A stretch of DNA of 5,019 nt from a virus. Its lineage: Duplodnaviria; Heunggongvirae; Uroviricota; Caudoviricetes. Of this stretch, positions 1 through 5,019 are shown piece by piece. Where the stretch lies: the IMG/VR virus record IMGVR_UViG_2541047946_000006. One strand, written 5' to 3'. The notes beneath the pieces are model-generated. The model was not told the origin of the DNA. It searched no databases and saw nothing but the letters and a program-made list of their open reading frames with translations. The stretch's first letter is position 1. Each line of letters begins with the position of its first letter. The translations under genes were made by a program, and so were the position numbers.

Positions 1-122
1 CCAATCTTTGGAGCAATGGAACAAATTGTCGCCCATTGTGAGTCATATTCGCCCTGACTTTCCAGAACCATACGGACTGCCCGTTGACGGACTTCAGGGG
101 AAAAACGAGTATTTTTAGTCAT
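1..122 (-). CDS. IS3-family transposase OrfA, N-terminal 40 codons only (runs off the window)
   Basis: ATG is the complement of nt 120-122; translation is [41 protein letters not shown] with no stop before the window edge. Confidence 0.8.
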
Positions 123-176
123 CCTGTTTACCTCTTTCTCAGGAAGTTTAGTCTCCAGGATTCCCGGGGCGGTTCA
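1..176 (-). mobile_element. IS629-type (IS3 family) insertion sequence, transposase-proximal terminal segment; element continues beyond the left window edge
   Basis: nt 1-176 are the exact reverse complement of nt 4844-5019 (compared base by base). The inward-facing terminus reads TGAACCGCCCCGGGAATCC on the - strand, a TG-initiated end typical of IS3-family elements. 54 nt inside the end is an ATG opening [41 protein letters not shown], which I recognise as the N-terminus of IS629/IS1203-type OrfA. The family call is from memory, not a database hit. Confidence 0.85.
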
Positions 177-672
177 ATCCAGCTTTTTGTTGGTATTGCT
201 GTCGATACGCAAGTTTGAAAGCAATTGCTTTTTCTATAAGTTCGTCAGTTTCACGATCCACTACGGCAGGATCAGCAAAAAGCAGTCCGGACTCCACCAC
301 ATCGCCATATTCTTTGTTTAACCCGGCGATCATGCACGTGATGCTTTTTCCGTCAGTAATTTCACGATACAACCTGAAATCATTAATCCGGATAGCCTCC
401 ATAATTGCAGGCACTAGCGCCGTGAACTTTTCACGCTTATCCCTGGTGTCGATAGCCTTCCAGCGTTCAAATATCTTCACTCGATTAACGCCAAGCGCTC
501 GCTGATCAATCGCGCCACCTTCATATGTGACACGCTGAACATCGATGTTCGGGCGCTCTTTCAAAGCCCAGAATGCTTCAGTGATTAATATCGTCGCCTG
601 CTCCTGTGTCATTCCTGGTCGACATATCCAGGCATCCAGAGCCTCACGAGCCTGTTCAGGAGTGATTTTCAT
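148..672 (-). CDS. YdaT-family-like (CII-analogue) early regulatory protein, probably 3'-truncated: codons 1-165 are native, the last 9 codons and the stop come from IS sequence
   Basis: 174-aa ORF from the six-frame track with protein-like composition. It lies directly downstream of the cro-like dicC on the same strand, overlapping it by 17 nt (656-672), which is the position cII/ydaT-type genes occupy in lambdoid prophages. The IS boundary at 176/177 falls inside codon 166. The family assignment is from recalled similarity and is the weakest call here. Confidence 0.5.
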
Positions 673-886
673 TGTTCAACCGCCCCGCCCGCTTCGTCTT
701 ACGATATTCATCATAAACTTTGGGATCATACTGAAGCTCCCCGCCAGATGCCTCCTGTAGACGCATCGCGCGACCTTCGGGAACTAAATCCCCTTTCCAG
801 CTATAAAGCGAAGCCAAACGAATACCTGCTGCTTGTGCAAGTTTTGTTTTTGAACCGAAATACAAAAGAGCGTCAGTTTTAAGCAT
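656..886 (-). CDS. dicC: DicC, Cro-like helix-turn-helix regulator of the Qin-type prophage
   Basis: 76-aa product [76 protein letters not shown], recognised as DicC. It is divergent from dicA. An AAGGTG Shine-Dalgarno sits 6 nt upstream of the ATG (complement of 884-886). Stop is TGA (complement of 656-658). Confidence 0.9.
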   Translation of the reverse strand: MLKTDALLYFGSKTKLAQAAGIRLASLYSWKGDLVPEGRAMRLQEASGGELQYDPKVYDEYRKTKRAGRLNNENHS

Positions 887-969
887 TTAAAACACCTTTA
901 TTGTTAGTCATAACTAACAAGATAGATGTTAACAAAAACATAGTCAATACGATTTAGCATTAGCTAACT
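887..969. promoter_or_regulatory. Divergent dicC/dicA control region containing two palindromic operator-like sites
   Basis: Perfect 20-bp palindrome TTGTTAGT-cata-ACTAACAA at 901-920. Second inverted repeat TTAGC-atta-GCTAA at 954-967, ending 3 nt before the dicA ATG. Both share a TTAG(T/C) core. No confident -35/-10 pair for dicA could be placed, and dicA has no clear Shine-Dalgarno, so its transcript may have a very short leader. Confidence 0.6.
919..947 (-). promoter_or_regulatory. Candidate sigma-70 promoter for dicC (PdicC)
   Basis: On the - strand: -35 TTGACT (complement of 942-947), 17-nt spacer, -10 TATCTT (complement of 919-924). The 901-920 palindrome overlaps the -10 and predicted start. 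Positional inference only. Confidence 0.45.
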
Positions 970-1377
970 ATGGAAACAAAAAATTTAACTATCGGCGAAC
1001 GCATCAGGTATCGTCGGAAAAACCTCAAACACACCCAAAGGTCTCTTGCTAAAGCCCTGAAAATCTCCCATGTGTCTGTATCACAATGGGAACGGGGTGA
1101 TAGTGAACCTACAGGGAAGAACCTTTTTGCCCTCAGCAAAGTATTGCAATGCTCACCAACATGGATTCTATTTGGCGATGAAGACAAGCAACCAACACCA
1201 CCTGTTGAGAAGCCAGTTGCCTTATCCCCCAAAGAACTAGAGCTCCTTGAGCTGTTTAATGCACTGCCAGAATCAGAACAGGATACCCAGCTCGCCGAAA
1301 TGCGAGCTCGAGTAAAAAACTTCAATAAACTCTTTGAAGAATTACTAAAAGCCCGTCAGCGGACAAATAAAAGATAA
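970..1377 (+). CDS. dicA: DicA, CI/c2-like XRE-family repressor of the dicB operon
   Basis: 135-aa product beginning METKNLTIGERIRYRRKNLKHTQRSLAKALKISHVSVSQWERGDSEPTGKNLFALSKVLQCSPTWILFGDEDKQ, recognised as DicA, with an N-terminal HTH. ATG at 970, stop TAA at 1375-1377. Confidence 0.9.
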   Translation: METKNLTIGERIRYRRKNLKHTQRSLAKALKISHVSVSQWERGDSEPTGKNLFALSKVLQCSPTWILFGDEDKQPTPPVEKPVALSPKELELLELFNALPESEQDTQLAEMRARVKNFNKLFEELLKARQRTNKR

Positions 1378-1412
1378 CATCATCAATGAGTTATCTTTTA
1401 CTACATCAATCA

Positions 1413-1466
1413 TGTTAGCTATAGCATACAAAATCACTTGACCGATATGTTAGTCATGGCTAATCT
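1413..1466 (+). promoter_or_regulatory. Candidate dicB-operon promoter (PdicB) with flanking and overlapping operator-like sites
   Basis: -35 TTGACC (1438-1443), 17-nt spacer, -10 TAATCT (1461-1466). Operator-like TGTTAGCTATAGC (1413-1425, containing palindrome GCTATAGC) lies upstream of the -35. TGTTAGTCAT (1449-1458), identical to the half-site at 902-911, overlaps the spacer. This is the layout expected for a DicA-repressed promoter. Confidence 0.5.
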
Positions 1467-1543
1467 TGTTTGCATCAACACACCGCACGGTGTTCTCAGC
1501 AAACAGTTCCGCTACCCCAGCGTTAAGGGGAAATGAGGTCAGC

Positions 1544-1699
1544 ATGGATACTATCGATCTTGGCAACAACGAATCTCTGGTGTACGGCGTGTTTCCAAAC
1601 CAGGACGGCACGTTCACCGCAATGACGTATACCAAAAGCAAAACGTTTAAAACCGAAAATGGTGCCCGTCGCTGGCTGGAAAGAAACTCAGGTGAGTGA
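1544..1699 (+). CDS. ydfA: YdfA, small Qin-prophage protein of unknown function (51 aa)
   Basis: ATG at 1544 with GAGG Shine-Dalgarno at 1535-1538; product MDTIDLGNNESLVYGVFPNQDGTFTAMTYTKSKTFKTENGARRWLERNSGE; stop TGA 1697-1699. The track ORF 1466-1699 is the same frame with an unsupported N-terminal extension. Confidence 0.8.
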   Translation: MDTIDLGNNESLVYGVFPNQDGTFTAMTYTKSKTFKTENGARRWLERNSGE

Positions 1700-1700
1700 T

Positions 1701-1829
1701 ATGGATTTCGACACAATCATGGAAAAGGCTTACGAAGAATACTTCGAAGGCCTTGCCGAAGGCGAAGAAGCTCTCAGCTTCAGTGAGTTTAAACAGGCGC
1801 TTTCCAGTTCGGCAAAATCTAACGGCTGA
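1701..1829 (+). CDS. ydfB: YdfB, small Qin-prophage protein (42 aa); absent from the supplied ORF track, presumably below its length cut-off
   Basis: Hand translation: ATG 1701, MDFDTIMEKAYEEYFEGLAEGEEALSFSEFKQALSSSAKSNG, stop TGA 1827-1829. AGGTGAG Shine-Dalgarno at 1690-1696. It starts 1 nt after the ydfA stop, suggesting translational coupling. Confidence 0.7.
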   Translation: MDFDTIMEKAYEEYFEGLAEGEEALSFSEFKQALSSSAKSNG

Positions 1830-1858
1830 TAAGCGAAACAGCACCGCGAGGAATCAGT

Positions 1859-2077
1859 ATGCAGAAACGAGAACCCGTCATCATCGCGCCAGACTATACC
1901 GATGATGAACTTTATGAGTGGATGCGCCAGAAAATTAATGCAGCGCAGGATCTGAAATGGGCTAATGAAGCCAGGGCTAAGCAGGCTGAAAATCTGTCCG
2001 CTCTGGAGCAGGATATCACCAATCTGGAAAAAGCAGCGGCATTAAGCATTGCCAGAATGATTACATACCCGCGTTAG
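1859..2077 (+). CDS. ydfC: YdfC, small Qin-prophage protein (72 aa)
   Basis: ATG 1859 preceded by GAGGA (1848-1852) with a 6-nt spacer; product MQKREPVIIAPDYTDDELYEWMRQKINAAQDLKWANEARAKQAENLSALEQDITNLEKAAALSIARMITYPR; stop TAG 2075-2077. Confidence 0.8.
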   Translation: MQKREPVIIAPDYTDDELYEWMRQKINAAQDLKWANEARAKQAENLSALEQDITNLEKAAALSIARMITYPR

Positions 2078-2417
2078 TAGCTAATCAACAAAGCTAAGGT
2101 TAGTAATTAAGGAGTTCTCCACGGGTGAGGTGGAGTGCGTGCGCCGGACACGGGTGCGCATCCGGAACTGACAGTTTACTGAAAGGATATTTCCCTGAAA
2201 AGTCAGACCATAACGCGAAAGCGCACGGCGAGGTAGCTGGTTCATAGATAGCCTGTCGTTAAATTTTCGTCGACCGTGCGCTTCCGGTTGTGGCAACCCG
2301 CGAAATGGCGCGGCGGTAAGTATGGCGGGGTTATTCCTTCCCCGTTGAGGACACCGGGTTGTCAGGTTGACCATACGCTTAAGTGACAACCCCGCTGCAA
2401 CGCCCTCTGTTATCAAT

Positions 2418-2475
2418 TTTCTGGTGACGTTTGGCGGTATCAGTTTTACTCCGTGACTGCTCTGCCGCCCTTTTT
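2418..2475 (+). ncRNA. dicF: DicF small regulatory RNA (Hfq-dependent sRNA that represses ftsZ among other targets); ends approximate to +/-5 nt
   Basis: Sequence TTTCTGGTGACGTTTGGCGGTATCAGTTTTACTCCGTGACTGCTCTGCCGCCCTTTTT recognised as DicF. It sits in the expected slot between ydfC and dicB and ends in a GC-rich stem plus T5 tract. The mature 5' end is made by processing and cannot be fixed from sequence alone. Confidence 0.85.
2433..2475 (+). terminator. Intrinsic (Rho-independent) terminator forming the DicF 3' end
   Basis: Stem GGCGG(2433-2437)/CCGCC(2465-2469), extendable with a G-U pair, an A-U pair and an inner CAG/CTG stem across a small internal loop, followed by C and TTTTT (2471-2475). 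dicB lies downstream, so termination must be partial. Confidence 0.6.
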
Positions 2476-2644
2476 AAAGTGAATTTTGTGATGTGGTGAA
2501 TGCGGCTGAGCGCACGCGGAACAGTTAAAACCAAAAACAGTGTTATGGGTGGATTCTCTGTATCCGGCGTTAATTGTTAACTGGTTAACGTCACCTGGAG
2601 GCACCAGGCACTGCATCACAAAATTCATTGTTGAGGACGCGATA

Positions 2645-2833
2645 ATGAAAACGTTATTACCAAACGTTAATACGTCTGAAGGTTGTTTTGAAATTGGTGT
2701 CACTATCAGTAACCCAGTATTTACTGAAGATGCCATTAACAAGAGAAAACAAGAACGGGAGCTATTAAATAAAATATGCATTGTTTCAATGCTGGCTCGT
2801 TTACGTCTGATGCCAAAAGGATGTGCACAATGA
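2645..2833 (+). CDS. dicB: DicB, cell-division inhibitor (acts with MinC)
   Basis: 62-aa product MKTLLPNVNTSEGCFEIGVTISNPVFTEDAINKRKQERELLNKICIVSMLARLRLMPKGCAQ, recognised as DicB. GAGGA Shine-Dalgarno at 2633-2637, 7 nt before ATG 2645; stop TGA 2831-2833. The track ORF 2540-2833 is the same frame with an unsupported N-terminal extension. Confidence 0.9.
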   Translation: MKTLLPNVNTSEGCFEIGVTISNPVFTEDAINKRKQERELLNKICIVSMLARLRLMPKGCAQ

Positions 2834-3021
2834 ATTCAGCATTTGTGCTTGTTCTGACAGTTTTTCTTGTTTCCGGAGAGCCAGTTGATATTGCAGTCAG
2901 TGTTCACAGGACAATGCAGGAGTGTATGACTGCAGCAACCGAACAGAAAATTCCCGGTAACTGTTACCCGGTCGATAAAGTTATTCACCAGGATAATATC
3001 GAAATCCCGGCAGGTCTTTAA
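2830..3021 (+). CDS. ydfD: YdfD, small Qin-prophage membrane protein reported to cause lysis when overexpressed (63 aa)
   Basis: ATG 2830-2832 overlaps the dicB stop as ATGA; product MNSAFVLVLTVFLVSGEPVDIAVSVHRTMQECMTAATEQKIPGNCYPVDKVIHQDNIEIPAGL has a hydrophobic N-terminal segment; stop TAA 3019-3021. In-frame upstream ATGs at 2776 and 2821 are possible alternative starts. Confidence 0.8.
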   Translation: MNSAFVLVLTVFLVSGEPVDIAVSVHRTMQECMTAATEQKIPGNCYPVDKVIHQDNIEIPAGL

Positions 3022-3113
3022 AACAGTTCCGTAATAAATATCCGGTTTCATTCTTATATGCCAGCAATGGCAGGGATTTGTTCATCCTTAAATCTGTCAT
3101 GAGGTTAAAACAA

Positions 3114-4892
3114 ATGAGTAAAGTCTTTATTTGCGCCGCTATTCCTGACGAACTGGCAACAAGGGAAGAAGGCGCTGTGGCTGTAGCCACAGCCATTGAA
3201 GCTGGCGACGAACGCCGTGCTCGAGCAAAATTTCACTGGCAATTCCTGGAACATTATCCGGCTGCTCAGGACTGCGCTTATAAATTTATTGTCTGCGAGG
3301 ATAAACCTGGCATACCCCGCCCTGCCCTCGATTCATGGGATGCTGAATATATGCAGGAAAACCGCTGGGATGAGGAGTCTGCTTCTTTTGTCCCGGTTGA
3401 GACTGAATCCGATCCGATGAACGTCACTTTTGACAAGCTGGCCCCTGAAGTACAGAACGCTGTCATGGTTAAGTTCGACACATGTGAAAACATCACCGTT
3501 GATATGGTTATTAGCGCACAGGAATTGTTGCAGGAAGACATGGCAACATTCGACGGACATATCGTTGAAGCGTTGATGAAAATGCCAGAAGTTAACGCCA
3601 TGTATCCGGAGCTTAAGTTGCACGCCATTGGGTGGGTTAAGCATAAATGTATTCCTGGTGCTAAATGGCCCGAAATTCAGGCAGAGATGCGCATCTGGAA
3701 AAAACGTCGCGAAGGTGAACGCAAGGAAACCGGAAAATACACGTCTGTTGTTGATCTCGCCCGCGCCAGAGCCAATCAACAGTACACTGAAAATTCAACA
3801 GGAAAAATCAGCCCGGTCATTGCTGCCATTCATCGCGAATACAAGCAGACATGGAAAACACTGGATGACGAACTGGCCTACGCTCTCTGGCCTGGTGATG
3901 TGGATGCCGGAAACATTGACGGCAGCATCCATCGCTGGGCAAAAAAAGAAGTTATCGACAACGACCGCGAAGACTGGAAGCGTATCTCGGCATCAATGCG
4001 CAAACAGCCTGATGCCCTTCGCTACGACCGCCAAACTATTTTTGGCCTTGTCCGTGAGCGTCCGATCGACATTCACAAAGATCCCGTAGCACTGAACAAA
4101 TATATCTGCGAATACCTGACGACAAAGGGCGTGTTTGAGAATGAAGAAACAGACCTGGGCACTGTTGATGTTCTCCAGTCATCAGAAACACAAACTGATG
4201 CAGTGGAAACTGAGGTATCTGATATCCCAAAAAATGAAACCGCGCCGGAAGCTGAACCATCTGTAGAGCGTGAGGGGCCGTTCTATTTCCTCTTCGCAGA
4301 TAAGGACGGAGAAAAATACGGTCGCGCAAACAAACTCTCTGGTCTGGATAAGGCACTGGCTGCTGGCGCCACTGAAATCACAAAAGAAGAATATTTTGCC
4401 CGAAAAAATGGCACATACACGGGCTTACCGCAAAATGTAGATACCGCTGAAGATTCAGAACAACCAGAGCCGATAAAAGTTACCGCTGACGAAGTAAACA
4501 AAATTATGCAGGCAGCCAATATCAGCCAGCCTGACGCCGATAAGTTGCTTGCTGCATCACGTGGTGAATTTGTTGAAGGGATTAGTGACCCGAATGATCC
4601 GAAATGGGTTAAGGGGCTCCAGACCCGCGATTCTGTGAACCAGAACCAGCATGAATCGGAACGGAACTACCAAAAAGCGGAACAAAACAGTCCAAATGCG
4701 TTACAAAACGAGCCAGAAACGAAACAGCCTGAACCAGTAGCGCAACAGGAAGTGGAAAAAGTCTGCACCGCCTGCGGTCAGACCGGCGGCGGCAACTGCC
4801 CTGATTGTGGCGCGGTGATGGGCGACGCAACATACCAAGAAACTGAACCGCCCCGGGAATCCTGGAGACTAAACTTCCTGAGAAAGAGGTAA
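3114..4892 (+). CDS. RecE-family (exonuclease VIII)-like protein, N-terminal portion only (YdfE-like): about 576 native codons, then 15 codons and the stop supplied by the IS
   Basis: Long ORF with protein-like composition in the slot after the kil-like dicB, where lambdoid PL operons carry recombination genes. The C-proximal stretch [33 protein letters not shown] resembles what I recall from the central region of RecE, at moderate confidence. Start chosen at ATG 3114 (GAGG at 3101-3104, 9-nt spacer); the track's TTG at 3078 is less likely. The IS boundary at 4843/4844 falls inside a codon and the stop TAA 4890-4892 is IS sequence. No nuclease domain is present. Confidence 0.6.
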
Positions 4893-5019
4893 ACAGGATG
4901 ACTAAAAATACTCGTTTTTCCCCTGAAGTCCGTCAACGGGCAGTCCGTATGGTTCTGGAAAGTCAGGGCGAATATGACTCACAATGGGCGACAATTTGTT
5001 CCATTGCTCCAAAGATTGG
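4844..5019 (+). mobile_element. IS629-type (IS3 family) insertion sequence, transposase-proximal terminal segment; element continues beyond the right window edge
   Basis: Begins TGAACCGCCCCGGGAATCCTGGAGACTAAAC at 4844 and is the exact reverse complement of nt 1-176. It contains the OrfA start at 4898. Confidence 0.85.
4898..5019 (+). CDS. IS3-family transposase OrfA, N-terminal 40 codons only (runs off the window)
   Basis: ATG 4898 preceded by AAGAGG; translation [41 protein letters not shown], open to the window edge. Confidence 0.8.

Follow-up and report, generated by a model that had tools for sequence, protein, structure and literature searches.

The window, by which we mean the whole stretch of 5,019 nt analysed here, is very probably a short-read contig covering the dic region of a Qin-type cryptic prophage of E. 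coli, with both of its ends lying inside IS629 copies. The arrangement is best explained as ordinary IS-driven prophage decay, that is, two independent IS629 insertions accompanied by IS-adjacent deletions, and we hold this with high confidence over a composite transposon that has moved. Two records are 100% identical to the window over its whole length: the complete chromosome of E. coli FDAARGOS_1377 (CP077325.1) and a scaffold of E. coli UMEA 3609-1 (KE702425.1). In KE702425.1, the window is the exact stretch bounded on each side by a run of N, and contigs from other short-read assemblies of the same locus stop 51–140 nt inside IS629, at a point that depends on the k-mer size. An assembler unable to cross the repeated IS629 would leave a contig end on either side of the enclosed segment. 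Because the match in UMEA 3609-1 runs from gap to gap, the equal 176-nt arms of the window represent contig ends and not biology.

A repeat search of the window recovered these arms at 1–176 and 4844–5019 (176 nt, 100% complementary, 4,667 nt between them), in agreement with the sequence-only reading, which had described them as perfect reverse complements. A perfect inverted match of 176 nt cannot have arisen by chance. The sequence that opens the arm, TGAACCGCCCCGGGAATCCTGGAGA, is the left inverted end (IRL) of IS629; the right one (IRR) is TGAACCGCCCCGGGTTTCCTGGAGA. The orfA ATG falls at IS629 position 55 (window position 4898 on the plus strand and 122 on the minus strand), and the first 40 codons of orfA gave a weak HTH_Tnp_1 match in a Pfam scan, so that an IS3-family terminus with an OrfA start, as previously proposed, is present at each end. 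Both IRL ends adjoin the inner segment 177–4843, which bears out the statement that the transposase-proximal ends face it, and both transposase genes therefore read outward. The enclosed 4,667 bp run from a ydaT-like gene through dicC, dicA, ydfA, ydfB, ydfC, DicF, dicB and ydfD to the first 576 codons of an exonuclease gene, and the features of the window are as follows.

1–176, minus strand: left end of IS629, 176 of 1,310 bp present; IRL at 152–176, orfA start codon at 120–122, first 40 codons of orfA running off the window.
148–672, minus strand: YdaT-family gene in the cII position of the prophage (Pfam YdaT_toxin; RefSeq annotation of uninterrupted loci).
656–886, minus strand: dicC, Cro-like regulator (Pfam P22_Cro, 1.7e-11; RefSeq 'dicB transcriptional regulator DicC' at the same place in 99.9% identical loci).
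887–969, no strand: divergent dicC/dicA control region, with an operator-like palindrome, TTGTTAGTcataACTAACAA, at 901–920, read from the sequence.
970–1377, plus strand: dicA, CI-like repressor of dicBp (Pfam HTH_3, 1.3e-16, and Phage_CI_repr; RefSeq; function from PMC10448788).
1544–1699, plus strand: ydfA, promoter-proximal in the dicBF operon (DUF1391, 1.7e-28; RefSeq name in colinear loci).
1701–1829, plus strand: ydfB, promoter-proximal in the dicBF operon (RefSeq name in colinear loci).
1859–2077, plus strand: ydfC, promoter-proximal in the dicBF operon (RefSeq name in colinear loci).
2419–2470, plus strand: DicF small RNA (Rfam RF00039, 76.7 bits against a gathering score of 48, E 2.8e-16, full length 1–52).
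2645–2833, plus strand: dicB, 62-aa inhibitor of cell division and ManYZ (Pfam DicB PF05358, 1.9e-40, 136.8 bits, full length; function from PMC6832061).
2830–3021, plus strand: ydfD, 63-aa lysis protein (Pfam DUF1482, 3.9e-26, 91.1 bits; RefSeq 'lysis protein YdfD'; function from PMC8835842).
3114–4843, plus strand: prophage exonuclease, first 576 of 823 codons (YdfE_N/YdfE_C part), cut by the right IS629.
4844–5019, plus strand: left end of IS629, 176 of 1,310 bp present; IRL at 4844–4868, orfA ATG at 4898.

Both genes at the edges of the segment are fused to IS629 sequence. The ydaT-like gene retains its native codons 1–165 at 177–672, its last 8 native codons being replaced by 9 codons from the IS629 end to give a chimeric 174-aa product, and the exonuclease reading frame continues to a stop at 4892 within the right IS629. 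The native exonuclease has 823 aa in an uninterrupted locus (L002), and in FDAARGOS_1377 its C-terminal Rv2179c-like part lies beyond the right IS629. The truncated exonuclease gave no match in a direct Pfam-A scan; YdfE_N and YdfE_C were taken from a precomputed Pfam table on an identical 592-aa product. In the control region, half of the palindrome at 901–920 is repeated at 1448–1463 (repeat family D4), and the palindrome itself, judged by its sequence, may serve as an operator.

The enclosed dic module is intact. The cargo named in the sequence-only reading, DicF, DicB and YdfD with a repressor, was recovered with the models RF00039, PF05358 and DUF1482 and, for DicA and DicC, by Pfam; DicF, DicB, DUF1391 and DUF1482 (YdfD) fit their family models over essentially the whole length. 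As expected of a Qin-type dic region, a CI-like DicA and a Cro-like DicC are divergently encoded (Pfam domains, RefSeq names), DicF is followed by dicB and ydfD in one operon, all on the plus strand downstream of dicA, and the surrounding lambdoid prophage has xis and int next to rspB/ynfA (gene tables of FDAARGOS_1377 and of locus L014; colinear annotated loci). The closest known counterpart is the Qin (Kim) cryptic prophage of E. coli K-12, where the order dicC, dicA, ydfA, ydfB, ydfC, DicF, dicB, ydfD, exonuclease/ydfE is the same and the likeness extends past exonuclease/ydfE to xis and int next to rspB. Unlike K-12 Qin, the prophage in the lineage of the window is interrupted by IS629 twice, once within the ydaT-like gene and once within the exonuclease gene; K-12 presumably has an IS2 insertion at ydfE. 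This immunity and cell-division-inhibitor region is already well known, its regulation and functions having been described in K-12 (PMC10448788, PMC6832061, PMC8835842), and the dic genes of the window probably function in the same way. DicA would repress dicBp, DicC would act like Cro and DicF would be processed from the dicBF transcript, while DicB would act through MinC on FtsZ, and on ManYZ, and YdfD would be lytic.

The fully resolved assembly behind the two-copy structure is that of one genome, FDAARGOS_1377, in which two inverted IS629 copies point their left ends towards the enclosed block, the whole unit measuring 7.3 kb. A check proposed earlier was whether each copy is full length, and both are, at 1,310 bp, and identical to each other. 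Both have the terminal inverted repeats of about 25 bp and the TG...CA ends of IS629. The element matches LC567824.1 (annotated 'insertion sequence: IS3 family IS629, OrfA, OrfB') at 99.9% identity across 1,310 bp, and its 404-aa OrfA/OrfB transposase product contains HTH_Tnp_1, HTH_21, rve and rve_3 domains. Related IS copies in two annotated loci (L001 and L002) show 99.4% and 98.1% DNA identity and are tagged 'programmed frameshift' in RefSeq.

The target sites of the two copies differ. The left IS629 of FDAARGOS_1377 reads ...TTCC ATCC / IS / ATCC AGC..., with a 4-bp duplication of the ATCC that is single in the empty site. The right one reads ...GAAAC / IS 1–1310 / IS 1211–1310 / ATGAAG..., the empty site being GAAAC ATTCG ATGAAG; no duplication accompanies this copy, a 100-nt remnant of another IS629 comes after it, and the target has lost 5 bp. 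At the outer junctions, the IRR adjoins ...TTCCATCC and the IRR remnant adjoins ATGAAGAG. Both target sites are empty in four compared loci (L001, L002, L019 and that of FDAARGOS_1249, L017), and FDAARGOS_1249 is 100% identical over 6.7 kb of flank. A search for the block uninterrupted in related genomes, also proposed earlier, was likewise positive: the uninterrupted Qin prophages of RM14721 and VG888-46E9 are colinear with the FDAARGOS_1377 flanks, which places the block in its native prophage position and native orientation. In UMEA 3609-1, a 510-bp deletion was found in the outer flank of the left IS629 copy; the orientation of the block in this strain rests on scaffolding because there are gaps at both copies.

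These observations are best explained by two IS629 copies that entered a resident prophage by separate copy-out-paste-in insertions. One would have used a site within the final codons of the ydaT-like gene, immediately upstream of an O-like replication gene, duplicating ATCC. The other would have entered codon 577 of the exonuclease gene, with later remodelling that left the 100-nt remnant of a further IS629 and removed 5 bp of the target. Since the duplication is missing at the right IS629, its history is reconstructed and not observed, and we infer the order of events at that site. The insertions leave three flanking prophage genes inactivated or truncated, and they seed further IS-adjacent deletions. 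The sequence-only reading had named two independent insertions, each with its own duplication, as the outcome that would speak against a mobile unit, and this is largely what was found: the left copy has its own ATCC, and the right one, lacking a duplication, shows a more complex and separate scar. Prophage-borne IS629 copies of E. coli O157:H7 and other STEC are comparable in length (1,310 bp), identity (99.9%) and prophage target. Most IS629 copies (62%) lie in prophages, and a 3–4 bp duplication is kept at only 21 of 47 sites, its absence being common for this element (PMC3271280); here the left copy has one and the right copy has none. Unlike that comparison set, the host lineage here is that of FDAARGOS_1377 and UMEA 3609-1. 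In one E. coli lineage the Qin prophage is under active erosion by IS629, with the self-repressed dic module staying intact.

Among the alternatives, the one that survives best is that the 4.67-kb block is invertible, flipped by RecA-dependent recombination across the inverted 1.3-kb IS629 pair so that a population contains two isomers. We consider this possible but rather unlikely. Long identical inverted repeats are good substrates for homologous recombination, and here 1,310-bp repeats of 100% identity lie 4.67 kb apart. However, the sole resolved genome, FDAARGOS_1377, shows the native orientation, and the duplications of its left IS629 match on both sides, so no net inversion has occurred there; short-read contigs cannot report the orientation of the block, and one further locus with similar neighbouring genes, beyond those listed, could conceivably carry an inversion isomer. 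Flipping would probably be without obvious consequence, as all promoters and their genes are contained in the block and neither IS-block junction would change.

It is highly improbable that the dic block, together with its flanking IS629 pair, is a compound transposon that is mobile as a unit, or has been in the past, and so spreads a phage-defence and toxin module. The cargo is indeed bracketed by two identical full-length copies, and IS629 is clearly active in the clade, in which its position within the same prophage varies among close relatives. Against this, the context and orientation of the block are those of native Qin, and in a near-identical relative neither site is occupied. A 3–4 bp duplication pairing the outer ends, suggested earlier as a check, was absent in FDAARGOS_1377 (ATCC on the left against GGCA in the IS remnant, or ATGA after the remnant, on the right), and the left IS629 has a duplication of its own. 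Moreover, such a unit would end in IRR on both outer sides, whereas transposition in the IS3 family proceeds via a circle with an IRR-IRL junction (10.1101/2023.06.07.543989). Compound transposons of the Tn10 and Tn5 type likewise have two identical inverted IS copies around a cargo; unlike them, the present structure has native flanks, no outer-end duplication and no second location, and the circle chemistry of IS629 differs from the cut-and-paste of IS10 and IS50. Of the earlier suggestion of IS-mediated movement or deletion, deletion was found on the outer sides of the IS copies and not in the block itself, while movement of the block found no support.

Searches for the unit elsewhere gave the same picture. 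Junction-spanning 80-mers for either IS629-block junction had no identical match in 5,426 complete E. coli genomes; the inner block is present in 480 complete genomes, none of them with either junction, and, among the matches listed, runs on past both junction positions. At least six independent assemblies, from isolates and metagenomes, share the junctions, and among the contigs listed every one that contains a junction and reaches beyond IS629 shows Qin flanks. No IS629-bounded unit was found in the plasmid or phage records searched, or outside Qin. VG888-46E9 and RM14721, the best whole-window matches (96–97% coverage), were rejected as junction carriers and used solely as uninterrupted references, their IS3-family elements lying at other positions (a different codon of the exonuclease gene, and a DUF977 gene). 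An apparent 100% junction match in TST3 and TBE6 proved to be an independent IS629 insertion 17 bp downstream. The Escherichia phage record PhiR42_1 (host ECOR13) contains the identical block, uninterrupted, and lists a 'Mobile element protein' among its genes; as the record may represent an isolated phage or a prophage region, it was not accepted as proof of a viable phage.

The structure resembles a compound transposon, but there is no evidence that it behaves as one. We find it very doubtful that the IS629 pair makes dicA/dicC/DicF/dicB/ydfD a functional pseudo-compound transposon or flip-flop cassette, able to pass from one prophage to another or to plasmids in E. coli rich in IS629; if it did, the cassette would be a self-repressed toxin and anti-lambda defence unit. 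Were movement or flipping of the block demonstrated, it would offer a modest instance of a prophage immunity and defence module being reshuffled by IS elements; the evidence points the opposite way. Beyond bookkeeping, prophage decay by two IS629 insertions is of little importance, except that a repeat-bounded short-read contig can mimic a composite transposon.

That the terminal inverted duplication is itself an artefact, from a single IS copy or from the construction of the window, would fit arms that are exactly equal and end at the window ends, and scaffold gaps that bound the window in KE702425.1, but this is the least credible reading, as the two junctions join IS629 to different sequences, recur across the independent assemblies and are resolved in a complete chromosome into two full copies. 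The different outer flanks of these copies exclude assembly duplication of a single IS, and arm length is the only artefactual part.

A repeat search of the window found a perfect inverted repeat (1-176 versus 4844-5019; 176 nt, 4,667 nt apart), a match that cannot be due to chance. Read outward from the inner boundary, both arms start with TGAACCGCCCCGGGAATCCTGGAGA, and in each an ATG at element position 55 opens a reading frame with a weak Pfam match to HTH_Tnp_1. Both arms are therefore IRL (transposase-proximal) ends of one type of insertion sequence, facing inward, as the sequence-only reading had proposed. The entire 5,019-nt window is contained at 100% identity in the complete chromosome CP077325.1 (Escherichia coli FDAARGOS_1377, a strain name judged from the sister plasmid record CP077326.1; locus L004) and in scaffold KE702425.1 (E. 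coli UMEA 3609-1; locus L014). In FDAARGOS_1377, either arm extends into a full-length element of 1,310 bp, and the two copies are identical. This element is IS629: it aligns over its full length, with 99.9% identity, to LC567824.1, annotated by the depositor as 'insertion sequence: IS3 family IS629' with OrfA and OrfB. Many E. coli plasmids carry copies with 100% identity to it, and its 404-aa product contains HTH_Tnp_1, HTH_21 and rve domains. All features of IS629 are present in the FDAARGOS_1377 copies, except for a target-site duplication at one of them.

While the two IS copies are real, their equal arm length of 176 nt is an assembly boundary. In KE702425.1, the window (L014 6888-11906) lies exactly between two runs of N (5518-6887 and 11907-15946). 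In other assemblies, from isolates and from metagenomes, the same contig ends in IS arms of 126/123, 76/73, 54/51, 140/137 and 64/64 nt, the behaviour expected of k-mer assemblers meeting a repeat. The window is thus a short-read contig bounded by repeats. In the four unequal pairs, which are contig ends from de Bruijn assemblies (L006, L007, L008 and L015), the left arm exceeds the right by 3 nt; possibly AAC also precedes another IS629 copy in those genomes, a trivial assembly effect. The left junction is uniquely tagged by a chimeric 174-aa YdaT product, consisting of native codons plus 9 codons from the IS, which an exact look-up matched on NCBI, ENA and JGI contigs. The tag of the right junction is a chimeric 592-aa exonuclease product.

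The DNA between the arms belongs to a Qin-type cryptic lambdoid prophage and makes up its immunity and early-left region. The following features were detected in the window:

148-672, minus strand, YdaT_toxin (Pfam)
656-886, minus strand, dicC (P22_Cro, Pfam)
970-1377, plus strand, dicA (HTH_3 and Phage_CI_repr, Pfam)
1544-1699, ydfA (DUF1391, Pfam)
2419-2470, DicF (Rfam, full length, 76.7 bits against a gathering score of 48)
2645-2833, DicB (Pfam)
2830-3021, ydfD (DUF1482, Pfam)
from 3114, long open reading frame (YdfE_N and YdfE_C in the precomputed domain table)

RefSeq annotation of loci 99.7-100% identical agrees in gene names and order. The earlier description of a repressor-controlled cargo with DicF, DicB and YdfD is borne out. 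Beyond the window, those loci continue with the remainder of an 823-aa exonuclease, followed by xis and int adjoining rspB/rspA/ynfA. Every defining feature of a Qin-type dic region is present in the inner block (177-4843), and the dic module is intact, with all regulatory and effector parts inside it. DicA represses dicBp, DicC is Cro-like, and RNase III and RNase E excise DicF from the dicBF transcript (PMC10448788). DicB blocks division via MinC and also keeps lambda DNA from entering by the ManYZ-dependent route (PMC6832061), and the lysis protein YdfD inhibits the IspG step (PMC8835842). Operator-like sequences of one repeat family (D4), TTGTTAGTcataACTAACAA at 901-920 between dicC and dicA and TGTTAGTCATGGCTAA at 1448-1463 upstream of ydfA, are probably bound by DicA at the promoters of dicC/dicA and dicB. 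Another inverted repeat, I3 (2478-2498 with 2609-2630; 19 nt, 89%), forms a long-range stem enclosing the spacer from the DicF terminator to the dicB ribosome-binding site. The predicted fold of RNA 2400-2650 has -90.4 kcal/mol (z = -5.26 versus shuffles), and the stem could be a structure for dicBF mRNA processing or translation control.

At the left junction in FDAARGOS_1377 (...CATAATTCC ATCC / IS629 / ATCC AGCTTT...), ATCC occurs twice around the element and once at the empty site. The left IS629 therefore inserted in a simple event that left a 4-bp duplication of its own, and the identical ATCC on either side shows that there has been no net inversion in this strain. The ydaT-like gene has its last 8 codons replaced by the insertion, which sits 7-10 nt upstream of the point where a 321-aa O-like replication gene starts, a position that would cut off the rightward operon from its promoter through a polar effect.

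The right junction reads ...CCAAGAAAC / IS629 1-1310 / IS629 1211-1310 / ATGAAGAGTATC..., compared with CCAAGAAAC ATTCG ATGAAGAGTATC at the empty site. By this comparison, the right IS629 has no target duplication and 5 bp of target (ATTCG) are absent. The exonuclease gene resumes after the IS sequence; the insertion thus takes from the protein its C-terminal 247 residues, including the Rv2179c-like 3'-5' exoribonuclease domain, which lies beyond the IS. Directly beyond the complete element lies a 100-nt IRR-end remnant of a further IS629 (element 1211-1310; L004:4420-4519). The remnant, the 5 bp lost and the missing duplication suggest, as the simplest reading, that IS629 inserted twice, at points 8 bp apart, and that an IS-adjacent deletion came later. 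IS629 is often found without a duplication; of 47 copies in O157:H7 genomes, only 21 have one (PMC3271280). Within 17 bp of the exonuclease gene, IS629 has inserted at three distinct points (window 4843-4860 region; L003:9058): after GAAAC in the window lineage, before ATGAAG for the remnant, and after GAGTATC, with the duplication ATC, in E. coli TST3, whose locus itself was read (TBE6 is known only by the same junction-search pattern). This stretch may be a local IS629 hot spot. TST3 has lost the dic region itself by deletion.

The sequence-only reading had seen in the paired ends a composite-transposon-like or inversion-prone architecture. Aligned to the uninterrupted Qin prophages of RM14721 and VG888-46E9, both outer flanks of the FDAARGOS_1377 locus are colinear: the left continues exactly where the inner block begins, and the right carries on the exonuclease gene, then xis and int. 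The block has thus been neither displaced nor inverted there. Identical inverted 1.3-kb repeats 4.67 kb apart can recombine. The native orientation alone was seen, in FDAARGOS_1377; on orientation, short-read data are uninformative. Flipping would alter no IS-block junction and no promoter-gene link within the block, and hence no phenotype is expected. Occasional inversion, which would be of little consequence, is more likely than mobilisation.

Four other loci have no insertion at either target site. Among them is that of the close relative E. coli FDAARGOS_1249, whose Qin flank is 100.000% identical to that of FDAARGOS_1377 over 6,680 bp and whose inner block is 99.96% identical. The two insertions are therefore recent and lineage-specific. 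Of 5,426 complete E. coli genomes in RefSeq, none has either junction; 480 contain the inner block, which, among those listed, runs on past both junction positions. The IS-bounded unit was absent from the plasmid and phage records searched, and no duplication pairs its outer ends in FDAARGOS_1377 (ATCC on the left versus GGCA or ATGA on the right). Although the arrangement looks like a compound transposon, it is not classed as one, since neither of the two behaviours that can be tested was found: a duplication at the outer ends, and occurrence of the unit in another genomic context. Two independent insertions that share no history as a unit are the very outcome that the sequence-only reading had named as refuting its idea, and it is highly improbable that the IS629 pair can mobilise the dic module. 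All parts were already known, and ordinary processes explain the arrangement.

The overall picture is of a cryptic prophage decaying through IS activity around a dic module that has been retained. The IS copies go on reshaping the outer sides, as in the remnant at the right site and in UMEA 3609-1. In that strain (L014:5290-5291), the IRR of the left IS joins the flank at a point 510 bp more distant than in FDAARGOS_1377. Through this IS-adjacent deletion, the O-like replication gene has lost its 5' half and the duplication its outer ATCC copy; the deletion tells apart two strains that have both inner junctions in common. Loss of dicA with dicB kept is toxic, and selection against deletions that reach inward may be a reason why the module has been retained. 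FDAARGOS_1249 carries a 1,331-bp IS3-family element between dicF and dicB (L017:9395-10725) and an IS629 copy adjoining relE (L017:1-328). In the clade of this strain and the window lineage, the same prophage has been struck repeatedly by IS elements. Uninterrupted and at 100% identity, the inner block also occurs in a 48.7-kb record that its depositors describe as the complete genome of a phage (PV340562.1, Escherichia phage PhiR42_1; host ECOR13); its genes bear the labels cII, Cro, cI and replication protein O there.
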